Source of the DNA: a virus | Reading direction: 5' to 3' (one strand) | DNA length: 64,000 nt | IMG/VR virus record: IMGVR_UViG_3300021077_000115 | Span: 110,064-174,063 of that record | Shown here: positions 7,053 to 63,276 of the stretch, piece after piece | Numbering within the stretch: the first letter of the stretch is position 1 | Layout: each line of letters starts with the position of its first letter | Program-made: the position numbers and the translations under genes | The notes under the pieces: generated by a model | Seen by the model: only the letters and a program-made list of their open reading frames with translations | Databases searched by the model: none | Told to the model about the DNA's origin: nothing

Positions 7053-7179
7053 TATAGCCTCTGTATAAAATTACAGTGTAGGTGGACCCGTTACAACTCG
7101 AACGTAACTCTCATTCGGTAGCTAACCGAAAGCGCTCTTCCCTGAGCCGAGGCCCGAAACATTCATGTAGGTAAGTGTG

Positions 7180-7527
7180 GGTGGAAGTGTTCGGAATCGA
7201 ACCGAAGTCTTGCGATCCTCTCTTATTTCCATCATTCACGTGCGTAGCCACTGTATCCCCAATGGCTGAGTTCGTCAATTCGGTGGACGACCTATTCACC
7301 TGTTTGTCTCGTAAGCAACTTCGGTAACCCAAGTTACTTACCAGCCTTTGTGGTTGGCAATCCTGACCGCTACCAAGACAATCTTGCGGAGGACCGGCCG
7401 TGCTACTTATTAGGCAGCTGCGGCGTATGCATTATCATTCGCATTTAGAACGCCTAATGTTTGGGTGTATTAGGACCACCTACACGCAGGAAATATTTCA
7501 GATCCCAATCGAAAACCTTTCACTCCC
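7180..7527 (-). ncRNA. ssrA: tmRNA (ssrA)
   Basis: Minus-strand 5' end GGGAGTGAAAGGTTTTCGATTGGGATCTG resembles E. coli GGGGCUGAUUCUGGAUUCGACGGGAU. Tag frame at revcomp 7442..7407 reads GCG AAT GAT AAT GCA TAC GCC GCA GCT GCC TAA TAA = ANDNAYAAAA** (cf. ANDENYALAA). 3' end has T-arm TTCGG-TTCGATT-CCGAA, then CACTTCC-A-CC, which pairs with the 5' GGGAGTG. Confidence 0.8.
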
Positions 7528-11875: not shown

Positions 11876-12124
11876 TCAAACCCCAGCTTTCCCGCATAGC
11901 ACTTTCATGTGATATTTAGGAACAACCTGTAATGTGTTGGTTCGATAACTTCCTAAAATCACAAAACCATCATATTTACATTCTTCATTTGCCGCAGCTT
12001 CGCATCTTGAAAGACTCCAATTGCAAGTTATTTCAATTGGTTTTGGTCTTACATCATTAGCTCCATTGTGACGACATCCGAAAGTAAATAAAACCAATCC
12101 AGTGAGAACCAATCCTCTATTCAT
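11876..12124 (-). CDS. small lipoprotein
   Basis: Internal start MNRGLVLTGLVLFTFGC (lipobox TFGC) inside ORF 11876..12343; the upstream part of that ORF overlaps the QueC-like gene and is rejected. Confidence 0.35.
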   Translation of the reverse strand: MNRGLVLTGLVLFTFGCRHNGANDVRPKPIEITCNWSLSRCEAAANEECKYDGFVILGSYRTNTLQVVPKYHMKVLCGKAGV

Positions 12125-12176: not shown

Positions 12177-12845
12177 TCAACAACCCACGAACCAATGTTT
12201 ATGCAAATGATCAGCGATATCAATGAGCAATTTGCTGCGACAATCATAAACGATTTTTTTAATCTTACACTTATCACAAGAATCGCAGGGCACGATTCCG
12301 ATGGGTGTGTTACAACAAAACATACAGTCCATTGGAATTTCAAAAGACATTAGCATTTTTATAAGCTGAACATTATCAATGTTCTTCAAAGGAAAGGCAT
12401 ACCGAATAGGCCCTCTCCGCGCACCTTCTAAGTTGTCTGCAAATGAATTGAAACTATTTAGAAGCTTCAAAAAATCCTTCTCTTGATAAGGTTCTCCCTT
12501 TTTATATCCCCATGAAACAATATCTTCAGGCTGAAAATATATTTGGAATAAGCTTGGCCACAGATGATGTTGCCTAAGCATGAGATCCCCTACTGCATTG
12601 CCACTCACCGATATCTCTTGCGCCTGAATGAAATGCCCAATCGACTTCGCAAAACGCAAATACTTGTGCCTTGCAATGGATTGAGCCCGCATCTGTCCAG
12701 CATTGCAACGATGATGTTCCTTTACCGACAATGTTATTACAGGGTTTTCCTTGGTGGAAAGCATACCCGCCATGTAAAGTATCGCCGTTGAATCCAAACC
12801 GCCTGACCAGATCACCACGTTGCGAGCCATTAGCTCACCCCGCAA
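12177..12845 (-). CDS. queC: QueC-like PP-loop ATPase (7-cyano-7-deazaguanine synthase family)
   Basis: N-terminal NVVIWSGGLDSTAILYMA PP-loop (SGGxDS) and C-terminal Cys cluster CCNTPIGIVPCDSCDKC, ~220 aa as for QueC; the middle region is divergent. Confidence 0.5.
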   Translation of the reverse strand: MRGELMARNVVIWSGGLDSTAILYMAGMLSTKENPVITLSVKEHHRCNAGQMRAQSIARHKYLRFAKSIGHFIQAQEISVSGNAVGDLMLRQHHLWPSLFQIYFQPEDIVSWGYKKGEPYQEKDFLKLLNSFNSFADNLEGARRGPIRYAFPLKNIDNVQLIKMLMSFEIPMDCMFCCNTPIGIVPCDSCDKCKIKKIVYDCRSKLLIDIADHLHKHWFVGC

Positions 12846-30070: not shown

Positions 30071-30508
30071 TTGGTGTATTGGTCCATAATGAACACCGTA
30101 GCTCTCACAACCCCGGCGATGCTATTCCCGGCAATCTCTTTGCTGTTCCTGGCGTACACCCAACGCTTCTTGGCGTTAGCTAATTTGATTAGGAATCTTC
30201 GCAAGGTAGAGCTTGGGGTACGCTTCGGGGAAACTACCTGTCCCAGCGATCATTCCATCAACAATCGTCAGATAGCCAGTTTGCGTCGAAGACTTCATCT
30301 AATGAAGAGGATGCAGTTGTTTGGTGTGATTGCCTTCATTCTTTGTAGCATGTCGATGATGTCAATGTTCCTTGAGTGGAATATTGCTGGGCGGATTATC
30401 TTTGGTGCAAGTATTTGTAGTTTGATAGTATCATTACTCATATCTCTGTACGAGGTATGGTTGTCAACTGGGGCTATTGATATAGCTCTGTCTGACATGG
30501 AGCGATGA
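30071..30508 (+). CDS. membrane protein
   Basis: 4 TM helices. Confidence 0.5.
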   Translation: MVYWSIMNTVALTTPAMLFPAISLLFLAYTQRFLALANLIRNLRKVELGVRFGETTCPSDHSINNRQIASLRRRLHLMKRMQLFGVIAFILCSMSMMSMFLEWNIAGRIIFGASICSLIVSLLISLYEVWLSTGAIDIALSDMER

Positions 30509-31251
30509 TGAATGTACTTATAGTTCCAGTTTATATTAAGAAGATAAAGGAAATTGCGATGCTAAGGAAGTTGGTTTCCTTGGTGGAGAATGATCCTGGA
30601 ATTGACCATGTGATTATAGTGGATGACTGCAGTCCGCTTAAGTACGACCTACACCCATACGTTAAAATTGGAAGAGAGCAGATTAAGTTACGAAGCAATC
30701 GTGGCCCAGCACACGCTCGCAACATTGGAATAGAGCGGTCATTTGAGCTTGGGGCAACCAATTTGTTCTTTACAGATCATGATTGTGAATTGATGCCTGG
30801 GTGGGGAATGGCATTTGAGAATTTCCTGGCTAATAATCCATATTCGATAGCTGGTGGAATAACTTTATCAGCAGGCAATACTATACTTGATCGTTACCAC
30901 AATATAAATGGTACATTGAATGGGCGTTTGGTTATTGGGAAAGATGAGCTTTTGTACGCTCCATCTTGCAATTTAGCCATGCGTGCTTGTGTATCTATGG
31001 ACTTTAGGTTTGATGAGTCATTTCCAAACGCAGCAGGAGAGGATGTTGATTTCTGTTTGCGCGCTAGGAATATGTACAATATAGGATTGTGTCGAGAGGC
31101 AGTTGTACATCATAACTGGGGATACAGATCAACTATTAGTGGGCTACCAAAGTTCGTTCAGACGTTTAGTAAGTATAAAGCGGCTAACTCTTTACTTCGC
31201 AGTAAGCATAGTCGTATCAAATGGGGATCTGAAGCGATTCCATCCATATAA
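30505..31251 (+). CDS. family-2 (GT-A fold) glycosyltransferase
   Basis: VIIVDDCSP...RSNRGPAHARNIGI...FFTDHDCEL pattern (DxD-type); start may be M at 30562. Confidence 0.6.
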   Translation: MMNVLIVPVYIKKIKEIAMLRKLVSLVENDPGIDHVIIVDDCSPLKYDLHPYVKIGREQIKLRSNRGPAHARNIGIERSFELGATNLFFTDHDCELMPGWGMAFENFLANNPYSIAGGITLSAGNTILDRYHNINGTLNGRLVIGKDELLYAPSCNLAMRACVSMDFRFDESFPNAAGEDVDFCLRARNMYNIGLCREAVVHHNWGYRSTISGLPKFVQTFSKYKAANSLLRSKHSRIKWGSEAIPSI

Positions 31252-45493: not shown

Positions 45494-45718
45494 ATGACTA
45501 CAGAAAAAAAGTATGACAAACCATTATTGACACTAAACTGTGCTGATCATAAGTGGATAGTCCACGAGGGTCATTGGGTATCAGATAATGGAGAAATGAT
45601 ACTGATGACTGATGGAAATCCATCTCGTCAGATAGTTGGAAGTGGTAGAGTTGTGTTTGCTGTGCATTTGCTAGATATGTATCTAGCTATGGAAAAAGAG
45701 CTAAGAGCGCTAAAATGA
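45494..45718 (+). CDS. hypothetical protein
   Basis: 74-aa ORF. Confidence 0.4.
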   Translation: MTTEKKYDKPLLTLNCADHKWIVHEGHWVSDNGEMILMTDGNPSRQIVGSGRVVFAVHLLDMYLAMEKELRALK

Positions 45719-46626
45719 TTACTCGCGATGGAAAGCTTGAGATTTTTGAAAACTTCATTGTAGATGCTAGTCTACCAAAACATTTTGGAAAGAAACGCTC
45801 AGAGCTTTCCAAAATGGTAAATGCTTGGGTTGATTATCACAGAGATAGCGACAGCGAGTCCAAGAATGATGGTGATGTTGGGTTTATCCAGGCATGGAGA
45901 GAACCCGAAGAAATGGATATTCCTGGTCTTGTTAAGACCGAAGGTGACGGATTTATAATTGGGAATAGAAAATATCGCAATAAGAAGGTTTGGTCTTTCT
46001 TATTATTCCCGATATTATGGATGGTTGGATTATTCAGAAAAAAGAAGATGGCAAAGATTGAAGCAGCAAGAATGTCCGTAAAGGACTTCTTCGCCTCAAT
46101 AAAAAACTCTGCCAGAGAGCTTGAGATTGTTGCCGAGCGCGCTGCCGGATACGAGAAAGCCTTGATCAACGCCACCAAAGCCGGACAGGTTGCCCTTAAG
46201 GAGCGTCTGTTGAGTGGCTTGGATGCGCACCGCTCTGAGACCCAACTATTTGCTTCAGATCATAAGAAATACGTCACTGAAGAAGATGTGGTGAAATTTG
46301 TCAAGCAAGCCAAACGTGGATTGCGGCTTGATTGGATTAAGAACTTTACTAGAATTATTCCTAATGAAGTAATTTTTACCAAAGTAAGTCTTGATGAATT
46401 GACTGTGTTTGATAACTACGTTGTCATGCACTACGATCCAAACAAGAATTCTTGGGCGGAAACTCAAGAGGAAGCAAATAGGAGAAGAGACCCTATATTG
46501 TTTGGTGTAATTCTTGGTAGTAGAAAACTGTATTTCGTTGGTGATTGGGTTGATGATCTATGCGACCTGACACTTGAGCAGATAGCCGCTGAGCTTGGGC
46601 AGCAAGCCATAAAGGAAATTGTATAA
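45715..46626 (+). CDS. hypothetical protein
   Basis: 303 aa; internal TM segment. Confidence 0.5.
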   Translation: MITRDGKLEIFENFIVDASLPKHFGKKRSELSKMVNAWVDYHRDSDSESKNDGDVGFIQAWREPEEMDIPGLVKTEGDGFIIGNRKYRNKKVWSFLLFPILWMVGLFRKKKMAKIEAARMSVKDFFASIKNSARELEIVAERAAGYEKALINATKAGQVALKERLLSGLDAHRSETQLFASDHKKYVTEEDVVKFVKQAKRGLRLDWIKNFTRIIPNEVIFTKVSLDELTVFDNYVVMHYDPNKNSWAETQEEANRRRDPILFGVILGSRKLYFVGDWVDDLCDLTLEQIAAELGQQAIKEIV

Positions 46627-50190: not shown

Positions 50191-50603
50191 CAAGTTACTC
50201 CAACTTCTTTGAGATGCTGGACGCTATTGAAGCGAAGATGCAAGACCCACGTTGTAAGGAGGCTGGACTCACCCCTTACACAGGGGAGCCTCTACTAACG
50301 AGTATGGATCTTGGGTGGATCGTTGCGCTTCCCCTAAGCGAACGGGACGAAACATTCCAGTTCAGTGTGAGTCTACGTCAGATAAAGATTGACCGGCAAG
50401 ATCCTAGATGGGCCGATGCTTATGCCAGGCTCCAATCATTTACGACCCACTTCATTACATGTCCAAAGCATGGGGTGGTTAAAGGCATCCCGATACACAA
50501 GCTTCAAGGCAAGAAAGAGGGATCTGAGACGCTGGTATGCATACCTTGTGTGGCTGAGCGCATGGTGAATCCTGTTCGAACTTCAGCCAATCTCTCGATA
50601 TGA
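50169..50603 (+). CDS. hypothetical protein between tnpA and tnpB (C..H...C..C)
   Basis: 144-aa ORF. Confidence 0.4.
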   Translation: MVRKEPMTSYSNFFEMLDAIEAKMQDPRCKEAGLTPYTGEPLLTSMDLGWIVALPLSERDETFQFSVSLRQIKIDRQDPRWADAYARLQSFTTHFITCPKHGVVKGIPIHKLQGKKEGSETLVCIPCVAERMVNPVRTSANLSI

Positions 50604-52027
50604 AGAAATGTCGGTTCTTCATGCTGCATCCTGAGTGCAACCCTGGGAAGATTCAATCCCTGGAAGCTCTTCACGTCGAGTACATAGCTTATGTCCGGAT
50701 CTGCGTTCAGACGATGCTCAAAGCCCATAGGCTGACTTTGCCCCGCTCGGAGAAGCAGGACTTCTTCCCCAGGGCTGAGAAGCTTACGTCTCAGATTGAG
50801 AAAAACGCCCGCGACCATGCCATCCAGATTGTGAGCACTTGGGCTAAGTCGGTTTATGCCAGGAAGATCAAGACTTTCATCAGGTTATCTTTCAAAGAGG
50901 GGAACTTTGACGAGGACTTCTGTAAGCAGCTTTACACGGTGGGTAAGTACTTGATTCATGAGCCGAAGGAAACCGTGTCCCAGGAAGCAATTGATCTGTA
51001 TTGGTCTTGGCTCTCTGACCCAGAAGTAGTGGGGAACCCGCCTTCCATATCCAGTCGGATTCCAATGAGGATGTCGGAGAACACCTGCTCATTGGAAGAC
51101 CCAGAAGAGGCTACCCACGCGGATCTTTGGCTCAAGATCTCAACTTTGATTTCTCGGAAGCTTGCTTGGCTACCACTGGTTGGGAACCCATACGTCAAGA
51201 AGTCATCTGACGTAAGTAAGGGAATCCACGCTAGAAAAGACCGAAAGGGCCGTTGGCGGTTCGAAGCCGTTGATACCAAAGAGTGGTTGGTCTGCGAGGC
51301 CGAACCTGACTTACCCAGGATTGGAGTCGATGTAGGACTAAACGTGGTAGCGGCTACTTCGAGCGGACACGTGTTTGGGGCCTACCTAAAACCCAAGTTC
51401 AACAGGCTCTACGACAAGGTCAGGGAAGTCAGGGCGAACCGCCAAAGGCAGGATCTCAAGGAGAACAGTCCTAGGCTAGACCGACTAGAATCACGCCTCT
51501 CTGGCTTGACCAAGAGCTTCACGGGACGGGTATCCAATGAACTGATCCGAACGTACTCTGAGTCCGTCTTCGTCTTAGAAGACCTAGATCTTCGTGGTTG
51601 TCGTGGGCAAAAACGCTTCTGTTACAGGGAATTAGCTCATGCCCTTGAATCAAAGGCTCCAACTGAAAAGGTGAATCCGGCCTACAGTTCTCAGACATGC
51701 CCTTCGTGTGGGCATGTCTCTAGATACAATCGGGCTGGAATAGATTTCATCTGTCGCCAGTGCGGCAGGATTTCACATGCCGACGTGGTAGGAGGGATCA
51801 ATTTGCTCGGACGTTCCGAGAGCAAACAGATTGGCCTCGATGATCATCCGTCGGAAGTGAAGGGAGTGCTTGTGAGGCTATACTGGTCTAGGAGGAATCC
51901 GGATCAGGACTGTCCACAAGACTTCTTGAATAAATACGCGCCATTACCGTATGGCCGAAGGCTTACTACCAGGGGACTCTCTCGAAAGAGAAGCACTGGC
52001 ATAGCTTTTAATCAGGTAGCTGCTTGA
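50600..52027 (+). CDS. tnpB: TnpB (OrfB_IS605/RuvC-like RNA-guided nuclease family)
   Basis: RuvC-I IGVDVGLN, RuvC-II VFVLEDLDL, zinc finger CPSCGH...CRQCG, RuvC-III HADVVGGINLL. Confidence 0.8.
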   Translation: MKKCRFFMLHPECNPGKIQSLEALHVEYIAYVRICVQTMLKAHRLTLPRSEKQDFFPRAEKLTSQIEKNARDHAIQIVSTWAKSVYARKIKTFIRLSFKEGNFDEDFCKQLYTVGKYLIHEPKETVSQEAIDLYWSWLSDPEVVGNPPSISSRIPMRMSENTCSLEDPEEATHADLWLKISTLISRKLAWLPLVGNPYVKKSSDVSKGIHARKDRKGRWRFEAVDTKEWLVCEAEPDLPRIGVDVGLNVVAATSSGHVFGAYLKPKFNRLYDKVREVRANRQRQDLKENSPRLDRLESRLSGLTKSFTGRVSNELIRTYSESVFVLEDLDLRGCRGQKRFCYRELAHALESKAPTEKVNPAYSSQTCPSCGHVSRYNRAGIDFICRQCGRISHADVVGGINLLGRSESKQIGLDDHPSEVKGVLVRLYWSRRNPDQDCPQDFLNKYAPLPYGRRLTTRGLSRKRSTGIAFNQVAA

Positions 52028-53763: not shown

Positions 53764-54027
53764 ATGCGAACATATACATTGTCACGAATTTATATTGATA
53801 CAGAACACCAGAGAGATTGCTGTGGGGATATAAATTATACAAATAGTGAGCCATTTCTTATTATAAAGTGCAATGATGTCCCAATTAGATTTGCATCTGT
53901 TAAGAGCATTGAATCTAGTAGAGATATTTTTGAGAAACTAGACACTAACATCTTTACAGTTGAAGATATATTAGATGTTTTGTGTAAAAGTAAATTAACT
54001 ATCTCACACGATATGGAAACATTATGA
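53764..54027 (+). CDS. hypothetical protein
   Basis: 87-aa ORF. Confidence 0.4.
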   Translation: MRTYTLSRIYIDTEHQRDCCGDINYTNSEPFLIIKCNDVPIRFASVKSIESSRDIFEKLDTNIFTVEDILDVLCKSKLTISHDMETL

Positions 54028-55286
54028 CTAGAACATTTGAATTAGGCGGCGAAGTAAACACTAGCAAAATAAGTTCTACTGTTAGTGTTCGTGACCAAAT
54101 CATACAAAAAGTTGGTGGGGATATTGAACAGGTTTGCGAGCTTGGTCATCCTCTAATCGGCGGAAAACCAGGATATCGTGATGAATCGTATATATCAAAT
54201 CTAGTTGGTCTAGCCCACCTTTCATTCTCTAGTCACCGCCATATGATATTGGATCCAGATGCAGTCTGGATTACAATCGAACATGGGCTGGCAACTCACA
54301 TCAAAGAGAATGCCGAAGCTCTTCGTGACAAGTTCGTTTCATTCAAGGGCAAACGAACAATCGATATCAGGCGAGACGAATTTAGGCGCGGCTCAATCAA
54401 TAATTGGGAGGGATGCTTTGATGAGTTCTCGGAGAAGATTGGGGAATTTATCGGCCCAAAGAAAGATTTGATTGTCGGAAATTTCTCGACCACAGGACAG
54501 CTACAAAGAGTATCCTCCGAAATTGTTCTGATGGATGCTATGAGTAAATACTTCGATTACTCAGTCAAAACATGTTGTCACATTCCTGTGATAACCCTCA
54601 CTGGTACTGTGGAAGATTGGGAACGCATCCGTGATAAGGTGAATTCATTTGATGAATTTGGTTTGTCTTGGTGGGCAGATCACCTGAAGCCAGTCCTTGA
54701 TCAATTAGTTCTAGCCGCTAAGGGAGAGGTTGATATTGACTTCTGGAAGAGCTGGTATAAAGAGGGCGGCGGTAGTGGTGGCCCATTTATCTCAGGACAT
54801 GTCAACGCATTCTTTCCATATTTAGGAAGAGATAATAGTAAAAACAAGTATATGGGTACTTGTCCGTCTCATCACGGGAATACTCTATCCTCTTTCAACC
54901 AATCTATTTCTAAGGTTCCATTCATTTGGGATTACTATAACCAGGAATATCCTATGGAGTTTGTTGGTGGATTGATTGGGCTAACACAAGATGACTCTGG
55001 CCGTGTTCAATGTTCCTTTGGCTGGGCTGTTCGAGATGAGTCAGTTCCACTCTCTAATTACCCAATCGAGAAGCTTGTGAAGGATATGGTCATCCACAAC
55101 AAAGATGGAGAGGCCGGATTATTGAAGAGAGCTGAGGCAGAGCATTGGGATAATGCTCCAGATGACAAGCAGCTTTACGAAGTTCAAATCGAATGGAAAG
55201 ACGGTTTGAAGACTTATAAGCAATGGGATTTTAATAATTTGTTCGTCAAAGAACCTGCTAATGGAGAGCAGATGGTGGTAGAGTAA
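54024..55286 (+). CDS. hypothetical 420-aa protein (no family assignable by eye)
   Basis: Long ORF; GGGSGGPFISGHVNAFFPY glycine-rich motif; stops and starts overlap across 54024-57292. Confidence 0.55.
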   Translation: MTRTFELGGEVNTSKISSTVSVRDQIIQKVGGDIEQVCELGHPLIGGKPGYRDESYISNLVGLAHLSFSSHRHMILDPDAVWITIEHGLATHIKENAEALRDKFVSFKGKRTIDIRRDEFRRGSINNWEGCFDEFSEKIGEFIGPKKDLIVGNFSTTGQLQRVSSEIVLMDAMSKYFDYSVKTCCHIPVITLTGTVEDWERIRDKVNSFDEFGLSWWADHLKPVLDQLVLAAKGEVDIDFWKSWYKEGGGSGGPFISGHVNAFFPYLGRDNSKNKYMGTCPSHHGNTLSSFNQSISKVPFIWDYYNQEYPMEFVGGLIGLTQDDSGRVQCSFGWAVRDESVPLSNYPIEKLVKDMVIHNKDGEAGLLKRAEAEHWDNAPDDKQLYEVQIEWKDGLKTYKQWDFNNLFVKEPANGEQMVVE

Positions 55287-55287
55287 T

Positions 55288-56166
55288 ATGCCAACAAGAA
55301 TCATTGCATTAGGTACAGGCTCTGCCTTCACAATGAACAACTACCAAACTAACTTTGTCATCAAAAGAAATGGCAAGTATCTTTTGGTAGATTGTGGTGG
55401 CGATGTCAGATTTAGCCTTAGAGATCAGGGCCTGTCTGCCAAGGATATAGATGCTGTCTATATTTCACATGCTCACGCAGATCATGTGGGCGGCATGGAG
55501 TTCTTGGCATTCACACGCTACTTTACAAAGAGATCAATGGAAAATGCTAGGGCCCTCGCGCGAACTGTCGATCCTGAGCATTCCCCAGAGCCACTTCAAT
55601 TACCAGTGCTATTCTGTGAGCATGGGATGATTCGAACACTTTGGGATCACTCATTACGAGGAGGTCTCGAAGGACTTGAGGGAATCGACGCCAACATCGA
55701 CACCTATTTCAGGGTACATCCAGTGCCAAAAAACGGATCGTTCGAGTGGGAGGGCTTGAAGTTCGATATCGTTCAAAGCCTTCATGTCTCTGCTAAATAT
55801 AGTATTGTTGATTCATTCGGGCTGATGTTTACTGATGATATTGGGTATCGAATATTCATCACTACAGATGTTCAGTTCGCCCCAGAGACATCTATGAAAG
55901 CCTATTACAAAGAGGCTGATGTCATAATTCATGACTGCGAAACAGGATTCAAAAGCGGAGTTCACGCCCATTACGATCAGCTAAGGACATTGGATAATAG
56001 CATTAAGAATAAGATGCTTTTGGTTCACTACCAAGACAATGTCTTGGAAGATTGGAATGCGTGGGTGGACAAGGCCAACCAGGACGGCTTCGACGGATTC
56101 GTCAAGCCTGGGCCGATTTGGTCTGATGAACCACCTGACGTAATCGCAGCAACAACGAATGTTTGA
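55288..56166 (+). CDS. metallo-beta-lactamase-fold hydrolase (RNase Z / cyclic-nucleotide phosphodiesterase-like)
   Basis: ISHAHADHVGG (HxHxDH), downstream ITTDVQ and IIHDCE, then HAHYD metal-ligand-like residues. Confidence 0.6.
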   Translation: MPTRIIALGTGSAFTMNNYQTNFVIKRNGKYLLVDCGGDVRFSLRDQGLSAKDIDAVYISHAHADHVGGMEFLAFTRYFTKRSMENARALARTVDPEHSPEPLQLPVLFCEHGMIRTLWDHSLRGGLEGLEGIDANIDTYFRVHPVPKNGSFEWEGLKFDIVQSLHVSAKYSIVDSFGLMFTDDIGYRIFITTDVQFAPETSMKAYYKEADVIIHDCETGFKSGVHAHYDQLRTLDNSIKNKMLLVHYQDNVLEDWNAWVDKANQDGFDGFVKPGPIWSDEPPDVIAATTNV

Positions 56167-56242: not shown

Positions 56243-57292
56243 ATGAAGAAAATGAAGATTGGTGTTTTCATTGCTCGGCTACAACCGTTTCATCTTGCCC
56301 ACGTTGATATTGTAAAGTTGGCAATGAAAGATAACGATCATGTGGTTATAATTCTTGGCTCTGCATGTCAGGCTAAGACAATCAAGAATCCATGGACTAC
56401 TGACGAGCGCGAATTGATGATTCGCAAATGTCTTACGTCAGAAGGAAATACCCACATAAGTGTTGTTGCTGCTAAAGACTATTTCTATAATGACAACATG
56501 TGGCTATCTTCATTGCAGTCTGCATTGGGGTCTGTAAAGGTCAATGGCGTTGAAGTTGACCTTGATGATTGTGACGTAACGCTTTATGGTCATGATAAGG
56601 ATAGGTCAACATTCTATCTCCACTTATTTCCTAAGTGGAAGCTCAATGATGTTGGAAACTTACGCACAGAGTTTCCTAGGCTAGATGCAACGTTGGTCAG
56701 ATCATTTTTCTTCAAAGGTAATACGGCTGAGTTAAGAAAGTTTATACCACAACCTGTATATGATATGTTGCTATCAGAAATGGGAACTAGTACATACCAA
56801 AATCTTGTTGCAGAATTCGACCACATTACTGAGTATAGAGCGCTATGGGCCTCATCTCCGTATCCAGTTCAATTTGTGACAACCGATGCTCTTGTGATAA
56901 AGTCCGGACACGTACTAATGACGGTGCGTGGCGGATATCCAGGCAAAGGTCTAATCGCGCTACCTGGCGGATACTTGAATCCAGATGAGCGTATAGTTGA
57001 CGGATGCCTTCGTGAGTTAAAAGAAGAAACGCAAATCGCTGTTAGCAAAGATGAGTTGAGGAAGGCAATTGTTGATCAGAGGGTCTTCGATCATCCAGAA
57101 CGTTCTTTGCGCGGACGAACTATTACACATGGTTATTGCATAAATCTCGGTGCCGGAGACCTTCCAAAAGTAAAGCGCGGTGACGATGCCGCTGAAGCGT
57201 TTTGGATGCCACTTCGAGATGTTTATCGTAGAGAAGAAGATTTCTTCGAGGATCACTTCCACATCATATTCTTTTTTACTTCGAAATTTTAG
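56243..57292 (+). CDS. nadM: bifunctional NMN adenylyltransferase (NadM-type) / Nudix ADP-ribose pyrophosphatase
   Basis: N-terminal MKIGVFIARLQPFHLAHVDIV (archaeal-type NMNAT (H/T)xGH); C-terminal GGYLNPDERIVDGCLRELKEETQI Nudix box. Confidence 0.8.
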   Translation: MKKMKIGVFIARLQPFHLAHVDIVKLAMKDNDHVVIILGSACQAKTIKNPWTTDERELMIRKCLTSEGNTHISVVAAKDYFYNDNMWLSSLQSALGSVKVNGVEVDLDDCDVTLYGHDKDRSTFYLHLFPKWKLNDVGNLRTEFPRLDATLVRSFFFKGNTAELRKFIPQPVYDMLLSEMGTSTYQNLVAEFDHITEYRALWASSPYPVQFVTTDALVIKSGHVLMTVRGGYPGKGLIALPGGYLNPDERIVDGCLRELKEETQIAVSKDELRKAIVDQRVFDHPERSLRGRTITHGYCINLGAGDLPKVKRGDDAAEAFWMPLRDVYRREEDFFEDHFHIIFFFTSKF

Positions 57293-60317: not shown

Positions 60318-60770
60318 ATGCCTATCGAACCAAATCCTTTTGATGACGAACGCCTTGCAAAGATTAGAGCTGAGCAAGGAGACCCTCTAATTCAATACTA
60401 CATCGTAAGAACTGACTTGAACATGAGCGCAGGAAAGATGGGAGCCCAAATAGCTCACGGCGCTCAGATGTTCGTTATACGATCTGGAACTCTGGCAGAA
60501 CGTCACAAAAACGATATGACTCCACTGAAGCCAGAGTATGAAGAGATCTTGGGGGTTGTGGCAGAGTGGATGAATGGAAGTTTCCGCAAGGTTGTGCTCG
60601 GCGGCAAGAAGAAGGACTTCGAGAAGATCATTGCTGAGCTGCGGGTCTTCCTCGTGCGCGATGCCGGCCTGACCGAAGTGGAGCCCAACTCCGAGACAGT
60701 GTTGGTGACATGGCCAATTAGGCGATCTGAATGTCCTAAAATATTGAAAAGACTTCAAACTCTAAAGTAA
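60318..60770 (+). CDS. pth2: peptidyl-tRNA hydrolase, PTH2 family
   Basis: QYYIVRTDLNMSAGKMGAQIAHGA and the C-terminal ETVLVTWP...ILKRLQTL match PTH2 ([21 protein letters not shown]...TVLGIGP...HLKL). Confidence 0.65.
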   Translation: MPIEPNPFDDERLAKIRAEQGDPLIQYYIVRTDLNMSAGKMGAQIAHGAQMFVIRSGTLAERHKNDMTPLKPEYEEILGVVAEWMNGSFRKVVLGGKKKDFEKIIAELRVFLVRDAGLTEVEPNSETVLVTWPIRRSECPKILKRLQTLK

Positions 60771-61977: not shown

Positions 61978-63276
61978 GTGAAGAAAAACTACATTCTTGA
62001 TACTAACGTGCTGATTCATGACCCACAATCGATATTCAAATTTGAGGACAACAACCTATACATTCCAATTTACGTATTAGAAGAACTAGATAAATTGAAG
62101 AGCGAGCTTTCCCTTCGTGGACGAAATTCACGCGAAGTTTGCCGATTGCTCGATGACCTGCGCTGCCAAGGCTCATTACCAGAAGGGGTTCCGGTAGGAG
62201 ATGGTAAGCTAATCATTTACGTCCCCCAAGAGCGGAAGGTCATCAAGGTTGCTCTCGATTCAAAAAGCATGGACAACGCAATACTTCAGTGCGCTGTTGA
62301 AATCAAGGAATCTTCCGAACTTATATCCATCATGGTAACCATGGATGTTAACCTTCGCATCCGCGCTGAATGCATAGGAGTTCAAACAGCTTCATACGAA
62401 TTCCAATCAGTAGACACTTCGCATATGATTACTGGTCACACCAATATGAATGTGGATCTTGAAGACATTGATAGGCTATTCAGTGAAGGATCTATTTTAC
62501 CAAAAGAATCTGATGAGGAGTTGTTTGATAACATCTGCATCATGCTAAAAGATCCAAGTGGCAAAACTGCTATTGGAAGATACAATAAGAAAAAGAACAT
62601 CGTAACTCCAATTCGTCCACATGGCGATGTGATGGGTATCAAGCCAAGGAACGTAGAACAGAAATTCGCATTGGATTTGCTACTCGATGATAATGTCAAA
62701 ATCGTAACCCTATCTGGTACCGCTGGTGGTGGTAAAACACTACTTGCTTTGTGTGTTGGTTTACAAAAGACGCTTGACGGCAAATATTCAAGACTACTTG
62801 TCAGTAGACCAATCATGCCTCTAGGTAAAGATATTGGATATCTAAAGGGAACTCTTGAAGAGAAGATGAATCCTTGGATGCAACCAATTTATGACAATCT
62901 AGAATTGCTCATGATGCAGGGCGGCGGAAAACGCAAAGGTCTCAAGTATGATGATTTGTTTGAACAAGACATTATTCGCGTAGAGCCTCTGACGTATATC
63001 CGAGGAAGAAGCTTACCTGGCCAATTCATTATTATTGATGAGGCACAGAACCTAACTAGTCATGAAATTAAAACAATCATTACAAGATGCGGTGAAGGCT
63101 CGAAGATAGTATTAACTGGTGATCCTGAACAGATTGATAGCCCGTACATGGATAAGGGATCTTGTGGATTAAGTGTTGCGGTCGAGAAACTTCATGATAA
63201 TCCTATTGTAGGTCATCTCACCTTATCTAAGGGCGAGCGTTCTGAGCTGGCAAATCTAGCAGCTAATCTGATGTAG
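61978..63276 (+). CDS. phoH: PhoH2 (N-terminal PIN domain + PhoH-like ATPase)
   Basis: PIN ILDTNVLIHD; Walker A LSGTAGGGKTLLA; Walker B/DEAQ IIIDEAQN. Confidence 0.8.
   Translation: MKKNYILDTNVLIHDPQSIFKFEDNNLYIPIYVLEELDKLKSELSLRGRNSREVCRLLDDLRCQGSLPEGVPVGDGKLIIYVPQERKVIKVALDSKSMDNAILQCAVEIKESSELISIMVTMDVNLRIRAECIGVQTASYEFQSVDTSHMITGHTNMNVDLEDIDRLFSEGSILPKESDEELFDNICIMLKDPSGKTAIGRYNKKKNIVTPIRPHGDVMGIKPRNVEQKFALDLLLDDNVKIVTLSGTAGGGKTLLALCVGLQKTLDGKYSRLLVSRPIMPLGKDIGYLKGTLEEKMNPWMQPIYDNLELLMMQGGGKRKGLKYDDLFEQDIIRVEPLTYIRGRSLPGQFIIIDEAQNLTSHEIKTIITRCGEGSKIVLTGDPEQIDSPYMDKGSCGLSVAVEKLHDNPIVGHLTLSKGERSELANLAANLM

Follow-up and report, generated by a model that had tools for sequence, protein, structure and literature searches.

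A gene on the minus strand of a 64,000-nucleotide stretch of viral DNA (positions 110,064 to 174,063 of IMG/VR record IMGVR_UViG_3300021077_000115; this whole stretch is hereafter the window) encodes a protein of the QueC superfamily, an assignment that is well supported. Sequence comparisons give good support to two further statements: that the protein is not an orthologue of preQ0 (7-cyano-7-deazaguanine) synthase, and that it is a member of a phage-restricted clade of stand-alone QueC-like proteins. Whether the gene codes for a stand-alone enzyme of this phage singleton clade, one that would carry out an ATP-dependent reaction on a small substrate and would not make preQ0, is in our judgement an even call. 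The window is clearly phage DNA, but megablast against 50,697 phage records returned no match for it. The gene and its parts are as follows.

12177..12830, minus strand: QueC-like coding sequence, 217 residues plus stop, protein starting MARNVVIWSGGLDST (ORF list, database calls, HMM matches, dN/dS, AF2 model)
12834..12841, minus strand: Shine-Dalgarno-like GGGGTGAG, 3 bases upstream of the ATG at 12830 (read from the sequence)
12789..12806, minus strand: PP-loop SGGLDS, residues 9-14, ATP pyrophosphate-binding motif (sequence)
12267..12314, minus strand: zinc-binding motif C173-x8-C182-x2-C185-x2-C188, with the spacing of QueC, C(x)8CxxCxxC (sequence)
12483..12509, minus strand: GYKKGEPYQ, residues 108-116, occupying the place of the canonical substrate-binding YPDC (hhalign, MAFFT, HMM alignments)
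12180..12242, minus strand: C-terminal tail of 21 residues, 197-217, missing from the closest orthologues and of low model confidence

The coding sequence lies in an uninterrupted open reading frame (ORF) which runs from 12177 to 12845 on the minus strand in the ORF list of the window. The TTG at 12845 is merely the first possible start. An in-frame ATG is found five codons downstream, at 12830, and is the start used by every database gene call (the identical 217-residue protein, P0001, is encoded by several Joint Genome Institute (JGI) and Logan contigs, the longest recorded measuring 391,957 bp). This ATG is probably the true start, and the upstream TTG an alternative in-frame start that is probably unused; GGGGTGAG is a putative ribosome-binding stretch for the ATG. 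A consensus scan revealed no promoter or terminator on the strand of the gene. Measured against an orthologue of 73-75% identity, the ratio of nonsynonymous to synonymous substitution rates (dN/dS) is about 0.22 over 196 codons. Because of the motifs, the matches to hidden Markov models (HMMs), the recurrence on contigs and the dN/dS value, the ORF is regarded as a real gene, and it is under purifying selection.

Family models, fold and the QueC signature

The window protein is matched by Pfam QueC PF06508 (37.1 bits vs. a gathering score of 22, E 3e-9, in two pieces), by PHROG 1550, labelled 'QueC-like' (E 3.5e-10), and by the PADLOC QueC model of Cap9 type (E 2e-9, over the full length of the model). 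No match to the PADLOC QatC model was obtained for it. The SGGLDS PP-loop and the C-terminal cysteine cluster, on which the original prediction of a QueC had been founded, are both present, and two extra cysteines, residues 169 and 172, lie near the zinc motif. QueC type is common to the best HMM, the closest solved folds (Cap9 and QueC) and the zinc motif, and the protein is placed in the superfamily on these grounds. Both NCBIfam equivalog models of QueC score below threshold, TIGR00364 reaching 23.2 vs. a cut-off of 150.3, NF008317 12.4 vs. 378. The name QueC is thus borne out at the level of the superfamily by Pfam, folds and zinc motif, the more specific function of preQ0 synthase being left unsupported by the equivalogs and by the essential residues described below. 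The automatic JGI annotation of this very protein is "7-cyano-7-deazaguanine synthase", a name which invites the wrong inference that the phage DNA is deazaguanine-modified.

Other PP-loop families were considered and rejected. PAPS reductase (PHROG 424, E 0.037) and TilS (E 0.03-1.7) match residues 6-56, i.e. the PP-loop, only; the match to LarE is likewise confined to the PP-loop. The move to a non-Que family such as PAPS reductase, which the original prediction had named as the outcome that would overturn it, was hence not observed. When the PDB was searched by sequence with this protein alone, the sole match was to a TilS PP-loop (E 1.7). The window protein begins at the PP-loop, and has no N-terminal class-II glutamine amidotransferase domain.

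The AlphaFold2 (AF2) model obtained with a deep alignment has a predicted local distance difference test score (pLDDT) of 89.9 and a predicted template modelling score (pTM) of 0.85; the tail is poorly modelled, the last two blocks having pLDDT values of 55 and 45. The predicted fold is an N-type (PP-loop) ATP pyrophosphatase core followed by a C-terminal Cys4 zinc knuckle. Among solved structures the model is best matched by the Cap9 chain of the Cap9-CdnD complex (9NTO_B, E 3.5e-8, template modelling score 0.72 on target), followed by B. subtilis QueC (3BL5). QueC ranked first with an earlier AF2 model made from six sequences (pLDDT 72), and it was the deeper alignment that put Cap9 first. 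The profile of the clade finds 2PG3, 3BL5 and 9NTO by sequence. The nearest predicted viral structures in BFVD are the proteins named 'QueC' of the jumbo phages RSF1 and Noxifer, the 'adenine alpha hydrolase' of Vibrio phage YC, and the ATPase of Muddy.

The canonical QueC signature has been defined as SGGxDS, YxQxHxxE, L75, VPxRN, YPDC, K165 and C(x)8CxxCxxC in a 2026 study, in which the E. coli QueC mutants Y35A, R99A, Y131A and Y189A were inactive, and the four residues hence essential for the formation of queuosine-tRNA (PMC13329287). YPDC supplies the Tyr and Asp which, in QueC as well as Cap9, stack against the 7-deazaguanine and recognize its N1/N2 edge (PMC13279940). The window protein was compared with the signature in three ways: by clade profile-profile hhalign to E. 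coli QueC, by MAFFT with canonical and clade sequences, and by HMM alignments to 2PG3, 3BL5 and 9NTO. The three alignments concur in that nothing is retained beyond PP-loop and zinc motif, the four cysteines of the latter aligning to the zinc cysteines of E. coli QueC, 2PG3, 3BL5 and 9NTO. The gene thus fails the experimentally defined signature.

The remaining motifs are altered one after the other (clade counts refer to 145 aligned representatives). The YxQxHxxE region aligns to KEHHRCNAGQ, with zero Y, Q, H or E matches by either hhalign or MAFFT; Y35 is replaced by His or Arg, depending on the alignment, at a position not conserved in the clade. R99 of VPxRN corresponds to Q87 by hhalign, a residue present in 134 of the 145 clade members, or else the whole motif falls inside an 8-residue deletion (MAFFT). 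YPDC is replaced by E113-P114-Y115-Q116, where the clade consensus is DDFWH (segment GYIxxDDFWH); Y131 and D133 of E. coli QueC align to P/Y115/Q116, and the position of the base-reading Asp is occupied by Gln in the window protein and mostly by His in the clade. K165 is replaced by N153 (K153 in 134/145 members), and Y189, next to the first zinc Cys, by N174 (E174 in 98/145). All four residues shown to be essential by mutagenesis are therefore altered. In the same MAFFT alignment every canonical motif is displayed by phage 9g Gat-QueC and by a canonical-type phage QueC (L024).

Compared with canonical QueC (EC 6.3.4.20; E. coli b0444, B. subtilis 3BL5), the window protein has the same fold, SGGxDS loop and C(x)8CxxCxxC motif and a similar length, but is only ~15-21% identical in sequence, does not conserve YxQxHxxE, VPxRN, YPDC, K165 or Y189, fails the equivalogs, and is not linked to queD or queE. 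Phage 9g Gat-QueC and Campylobacter phage CP220 QueC* are, like the window protein, phage-encoded members of the QueC family. Unlike it, they retain the canonical motifs and cluster with folE, queD, queE and dpdA. The N-terminal amidotransferase domain of Gat-QueC is missing in the window protein, to which 9g Gat-QueC matches weakly, and over its QueC half.

The SP-15-type clade

The window protein is closer to gp114 of Bacillus phage SP-15 (E 6e-11) than to E. coli QueC (E 5e-3). Close homologues number six. When 1.84 billion cluster representatives were searched with a profile, 882 proteins were returned at E <= 1e-3, 276 of which at E <= 1e-10, nearly all 190-260 residues long; the 882 proteins are representatives of clusters at 50% identity, so that the clade is sizeable (~880 such clusters). 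SP-15 gp114 was also recovered by the profile search, and matches the viral loci of the clade with E values from 1e-20 to 1e-48. Against the clade profile, in whose alignment it is itself included, the window protein reaches 188 bits. Pfam QueC matches 138 of the 145 representatives, but weakly (best 4e-15), the PADLOC QueC model 117, and QatC 4. D13, S14 and T15 are invariant in the representatives, S9, G10 and G11 nearly so, and the four zinc cysteines are invariant or nearly so.

Clade members are mostly found in large uncultured phages; two cultured phages, SP-15 and Erwinia phage pEa_SNUABM_54, carry one. In longer members, domain fusions are uninformative on function, the sole case being one distant fusion to a radical-SAM/SPASM domain. 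This distant relative (P0216, 565 residues), in which the radical-SAM/SPASM domain is joined to a QueC-like domain, comprises 20 member sequences on 31 contigs.

Proteins of this kind have been noticed before. Hutinet et al. (2019) found that singleton phage 'QueC' proteins (SP-15, SFP10, ECML-4, Muddy) are unconnected to QueC and Gat-QueC in similarity networks, and suggested that they may form, among the N-type ATP pyrophosphatases, a subgroup unrelated in function (PMC6884629). The window protein is a new member of this previously noticed kind. Like the SP-15 gp114-type singletons, it is a protein of ~200 residues made of a PP-loop and a Cys4 motif, with no Que partners. Kinship to the SP-15-type clade is direct, by sequence and by profile, and the clade-conserved AR 53-54, Q87, W91 and GY 108-109 are retained; the RSF1 and Noxifer 'QueC' and the Muddy 'ATPase' are its structural neighbours, as best fold matches in BFVD. 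Other clade-conserved residues are altered (D113E, W115Y, H116Q, K153N, W171F, E174N). Relative to the SP-15 type, K153, W115, H116 and E174 are lost in an outlying branch made up of the window protein and its close orthologues, and the window protein features the extra tail of 21 residues, and small ORFs of no recognized family as neighbours in place of polymerase and replication genes.

Changes at four clade-conserved positions (K153N, W115Y, H116Q, E174N) and a lineage-specific, poorly modelled C-terminus are what might be expected of a decaying or non-catalytic QueC remnant with no enzymatic role. We find this hardly credible for a protein in which PP-loop and zinc cysteines are intact, the fold is predicted with high confidence, dN/dS is low, and several metagenomes retain orthologues of 47-75% identity.

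Genomic context and candidate chemistry

Partners of the queuosine and deazaguanine pathways were searched in the six frames of the window and of flanks of ~8.5 kb on the left and 10 kb on the right (together ~82 kb of the ~392-kb contig). The seeds were E. coli K-12 FolE, QueD, QueE, QueC, QueA and Tgt; phage 9g DpdA1, FolE, QueD, Gat-QueC and QueE; phage phiST DpdA3, DpdL, FolE and QueD; HVTV-1 DpdA4, FolE, QueE, QueD, QueC and QueF. Neither FolE, QueD, QueE, QueF, DpdA1, DpdA3, DpdA4 nor Tgt was found in window and flanks by tblastn, phmmer or multi-seed HMMs (DpdA2 was not among the seeds), and the sole match of these searches was the QueC-like ORF itself. Pfam annotation of most of the window ORFs and of the flanks revealed no PTPS, radical-SAM/QueE, GTP cyclohydrolase I, TGT or DUF6610 domain. 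The earlier remark that no QueD, QueE, FolE or DpdA is recognizable in the window therefore holds with tblastn, phmmer, small HMMs and the Pfam annotation alike. Nor were FolE, QueD, QueE, QueF, DpdA1, DpdA3, DpdA4 or Tgt detectable in the complete 272.6-kb genome of pEa_SNUABM_54, in which a clade member is present; the SP-15 member is likewise a singleton in a complete genome (PMC6884629). DpdA is the signature protein encoded by every phage known to carry deazaguanine in its DNA (PMC10516641). Since no DpdA was seen in window and flanks, the QueC-like gene alone is no indication of 7-deazaguanine in the DNA of this phage. The proposal that the gene feeds a 7-deazaguanine DNA modification is left unsupported, there being no partner or DpdA in the ~82 kb and clade members being typically singletons.

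The context of the relatives was analyzed in seventeen IMG/VR loci, one contig of a metagenome-assembled genome and several metagenome contigs, 19 homologues contributing to the list of neighbours; the profile scans of genome contigs and of metagenome contigs gave at least one distant locus each. Genes encoding RecA, clamp loader, helicases, PD-(D/E)XK nucleases, NrdD, SHMT, dUTPase and DNA methylases are found within 4 kb of the 19 homologues. One homologue overlaps the 3' end of a DnaE-type polymerase gene (L042 7312-10591), one is near dCTP deaminase/dUTPase and beta clamp genes, and one is flanked by D12-class and Dam-class DNA methyltransferase genes (L008 3204-5021). SP-15 gp114 lies ~0.6 kb downstream of the DNA polymerase gene, beyond two small ORFs. 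No conserved neighbour gene emerged from the all-against-all clustering of the 19 loci. A weak QueE-like match was noted at one locus (L023), possibly an NrdG-type activase in view of the NrdD found in the neighbourhood of the clade.

Que genes are found next to clade members in a single lineage. In an uncultured T4-like contig (L016, 9206-11028 and 17177-20442), genes for a phosphoribosyltransferase (PRTase), the QueC-like protein and QueD are consecutive, and within 10 kb there are also a Q_salvage (DUF2419) gene, queE and a gene for a dGTP diphosphohydrolase. The same PRTase and queD genes are near the clade member in a related T4-like contig (L017, 6381-10594). No canonical QueC is encoded within the fragments of the two contigs examined. 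This lineage is the only contextual tie of the clade to deazapurine chemistry, and its gene sets may represent a nucleotide-level 7-deazaguanine pathway using a non-canonical QueC.

The T4-like contigs bear on the view that the window protein is a working preQ0 synthase for DNA or tRNA modification, with QueD, QueE, FolE and DpdA encoded elsewhere in the 392-kb genome or supplied by the host. Clade members located beside queD and near queE, with no canonical QueC, suggest that some members may fill the QueC step; the window protein itself passes Pfam QueC and has the canonical zinc spacing, and ~310 kb of the contig lies beyond the part examined. We nonetheless rate this view as improbable. 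The equivalog models fail, the four essential residues are changed and the base-reading Asp is lost (PMC13329287, PMC13279940), neither Tgt, nor any partner, nor a DpdA of type 1, 3 or 4 resides in the ~82 kb, DpdA is the signature of all known deazaguanine-DNA phages (PMC10516641), and in SP-15 (PMC6884629) and pEa_SNUABM_54, whose genomes are complete, the clade member is a singleton. The preQ0 synthase reading is left without support by these results taken together, i.e. the failed equivalogs, the lost residues, the missing partners and DpdA, and the typical singleton status of the clade.

The reading that we prefer is that of a stand-alone enzyme with a different substrate or product, an option which the original prediction had left open and which fits the data best. 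In characterised PP-loop enzymes ATP is bound by the SGGxDS loop, an oxygen of the substrate is adenylated, and AMP is then displaced by an amine. By analogy, the window protein probably acts as an amidoligase of the adenylate-forming kind rather than as a preQ0 synthase. ATP would be bound via the SGGLDS loop, and an oxygen on a small substrate would be adenylated, that of a carboxylate (the case of QueC and Cap9) or that of a ring carbonyl; displacement of AMP by an amine would yield an amide or an amidine. The likeliest class of substrate would be a purine-like base or nucleotide, possibly host-made 7-carboxy-7-deazaguanine (CDG), and the product would be other than preQ0. A (deaza)purine carboxylate is favoured because of the zinc module with its Cap9/QueC-like fold and of the operon of the T4-like contigs, a different substrate or product because the base-reading Asp and the essential residues are lost, clade members are singletons in complete genomes, and the relatives lie in replication modules. 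As no DpdA is linked to the gene, the enzyme by itself would be unable to put deazaguanine into DNA; in most relatives it may act inside the DNA-replication and nucleotide-metabolism programme of the phage.

Several points weigh against this reading. The replication-module context is seen in the relatives, not around the window gene. The window protein is an outlier of the clade (K153N, W115Y, H116Q, E174N), and transfer of function from the T4-like members or from SP-15 may fail. The Asp which reads the deazaguanine edge is Gln in the window protein and mostly His in the clade, which argues against CDG as substrate. The substrate and product proposed for the clade are drawn from homology and context only, and the partner scan covered ~82 kb of the ~392-kb contig.

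A possible, though distinctly less probable, account is that of an ATP pyrophosphatase built on the QueC scaffold and acting on substrates unrelated to 7-deazapurines, such as a pyrimidine or purine (deoxy)nucleotide, a DNA base or a tRNA base; nucleotide or DNA substrates would be part of an undescribed nucleotide or DNA modification. It would agree with the loss of the deazaguanine-recognition residues, with the consistent location of the clade in replication and nucleotide-metabolism modules devoid of Que genes, with the homologue found between two DNA methyltransferases, with the unrelated subgroup proposed by Hutinet et al. (PMC6884629), and with the diversification of PF06508 to LarE, GMP synthase and sugar amidotransferases (PMC13329287). 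Against it, the characterised PF06508 members with a zinc motif (QueC, Cap9, probably QatC) are all tied to 7-deazaguanine chemistry, Cap9 and QueC are the nearest solved folds, and the T4-like clade members are found with PRTase and queD.

Cap9, the QueC-family ligase of type IV CBASS (anti-phage signalling systems based on cyclic oligonucleotides), is the best solved match (9NTO) and has the same minimal size as the window protein. The Glu following the first zinc Cys in the clade corresponds to the CE motif of Cap9; in the window protein it is replaced by Asn. The Cap9 motifs Y/FxQ(x)5E, RN and H(x)4YxDC (PMC13329287) are not conserved in the window protein, and the gene, phage-encoded and not part of a defence island, has no CD-NTase, Cap10 (TGT-like) or OGG neighbours. 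QatC has likewise a QueC-family core with a remodelled substrate site, and also replaces the Tyr/Asp pair (PMC13279940). Yet QatC is a protein of ~400 residues, with N- and C-terminal extensions and motifs of its own, and requires QatA, QatB and QatD, whereas the window protein is 217 residues long; no ATPase or TatD neighbours reside beside its gene.

These likenesses could be accommodated by a counter-defence role, in which the window protein would consume or divert host CDG, or mimic Cap9 or QatC, and so block the deazaguanylation of partner proteins by type IV CBASS or QatABCD. Cap9 is the nearest solved structure and the Cap9-type PADLOC model is matched over its full length, the phage carries other anti-defence-like genes (one Apyc1-type, at 55288-56166, and one 2H/Acb1-like, just outside the window), and such a role would account for a singleton in need of a host metabolite only. 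The idea is purely conjectural, and we consider it very unlikely: the Tyr/Asp pair that recognizes CDG is not conserved, the anti-defence-like genes are more than 40 kb away, and the clade usually resides among replication genes, not in anti-defence islands.

It is also conceivable, though unlikely in our estimate, that the clade, the window branch included, performs chemistry undescribed for PF06508, such as the joining of an amine other than ammonia to a carboxylated (deaza)purine, or the draining of host CDG. The amine may be a metabolite, a nucleotide or, by analogy with Cap9, a protein N-terminus, in a reaction serving genome replication; alternatively, CDG drainage may disarm Cap9- or QatC-dependent immunity. 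Were the chemistry novel, the T4-like contigs with PRTase, QueC-like, queD, queE and dGTP diphosphohydrolase genes would point to a deazaguanine pathway at the nucleotide level, with a non-canonical QueC at work in it. Taken for the window by itself, this is a modest finding, another uncharacterised singleton, and would gain weight only if the clade had new chemistry or a role in counter-defence. SP-15, pEa_SNUABM_54 and the T4-like PRTase/queD/queE lineage make the function of the clade experimentally testable.

Other features of the window

The window contains many small ORFs, arranged in two divergent blocks. The immediate neighbours of the QueC-like gene are small ORFs with no family matches. 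The one directly downstream (11876-12124, minus strand) starts MNRGLVLTGLVLFTFGC, and features a lipoprotein-type signal with a lipobox Cys; its start in databases is earlier, and makes it overlap the QueC-like gene by 47 nt. A tmRNA and a tRNA gene are located ~4.5 kb from the QueC-like gene. The features recognized are listed below.

7179-7527, minus strand: tmRNA (Rfam RF00023, 96 bits), tag peptide ANDNAYAAAA
7699-7772, minus strand: tRNA-Thr(UGU)
30505-31251: family-2 glycosyltransferase
45715-46626, plus strand, and 50600-52027, plus strand: two transposase-like ORFs (PHROGs 10081, 12300, 506)
54024-55286: DUF4419 protein
55288-56166, plus strand: Apyc1-type hydrolase of metallo-beta-lactamase fold (PF23023 Anti-Pycsar_Apyc1), candidate anti-CBASS/Pycsar nuclease
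56243-57292: NadR-like nicotinamide mononucleotide (NMN) adenylyltransferase with NUDIX domain
60318-60770: peptidyl-tRNA hydrolase PTH2
61978-63276: PIN-PhoH protein
L033 10856-11461, just right of the window: 2H/LigT/Acb1-like phosphoesterase, candidate anti-CBASS/Pycsar nuclease

Strong Pfam matches to PanD, CoaE, NADAR, DUF1345, a serine resolvase and a MerR-type regulator were obtained, at the level of regions, in the 18-22.7 kb and 38-54 kb intervals of the window. PanD (aspartate decarboxylase) and CoaE (dephospho-CoA kinase) suggest that genes of the coenzyme A (CoA) pathway are encoded by the phage. At ~22.7-23 kb transcription flips from the minus to the plus strand and the GC skew changes sign, the boundary being either a divergent promoter region or a replication-related boundary.

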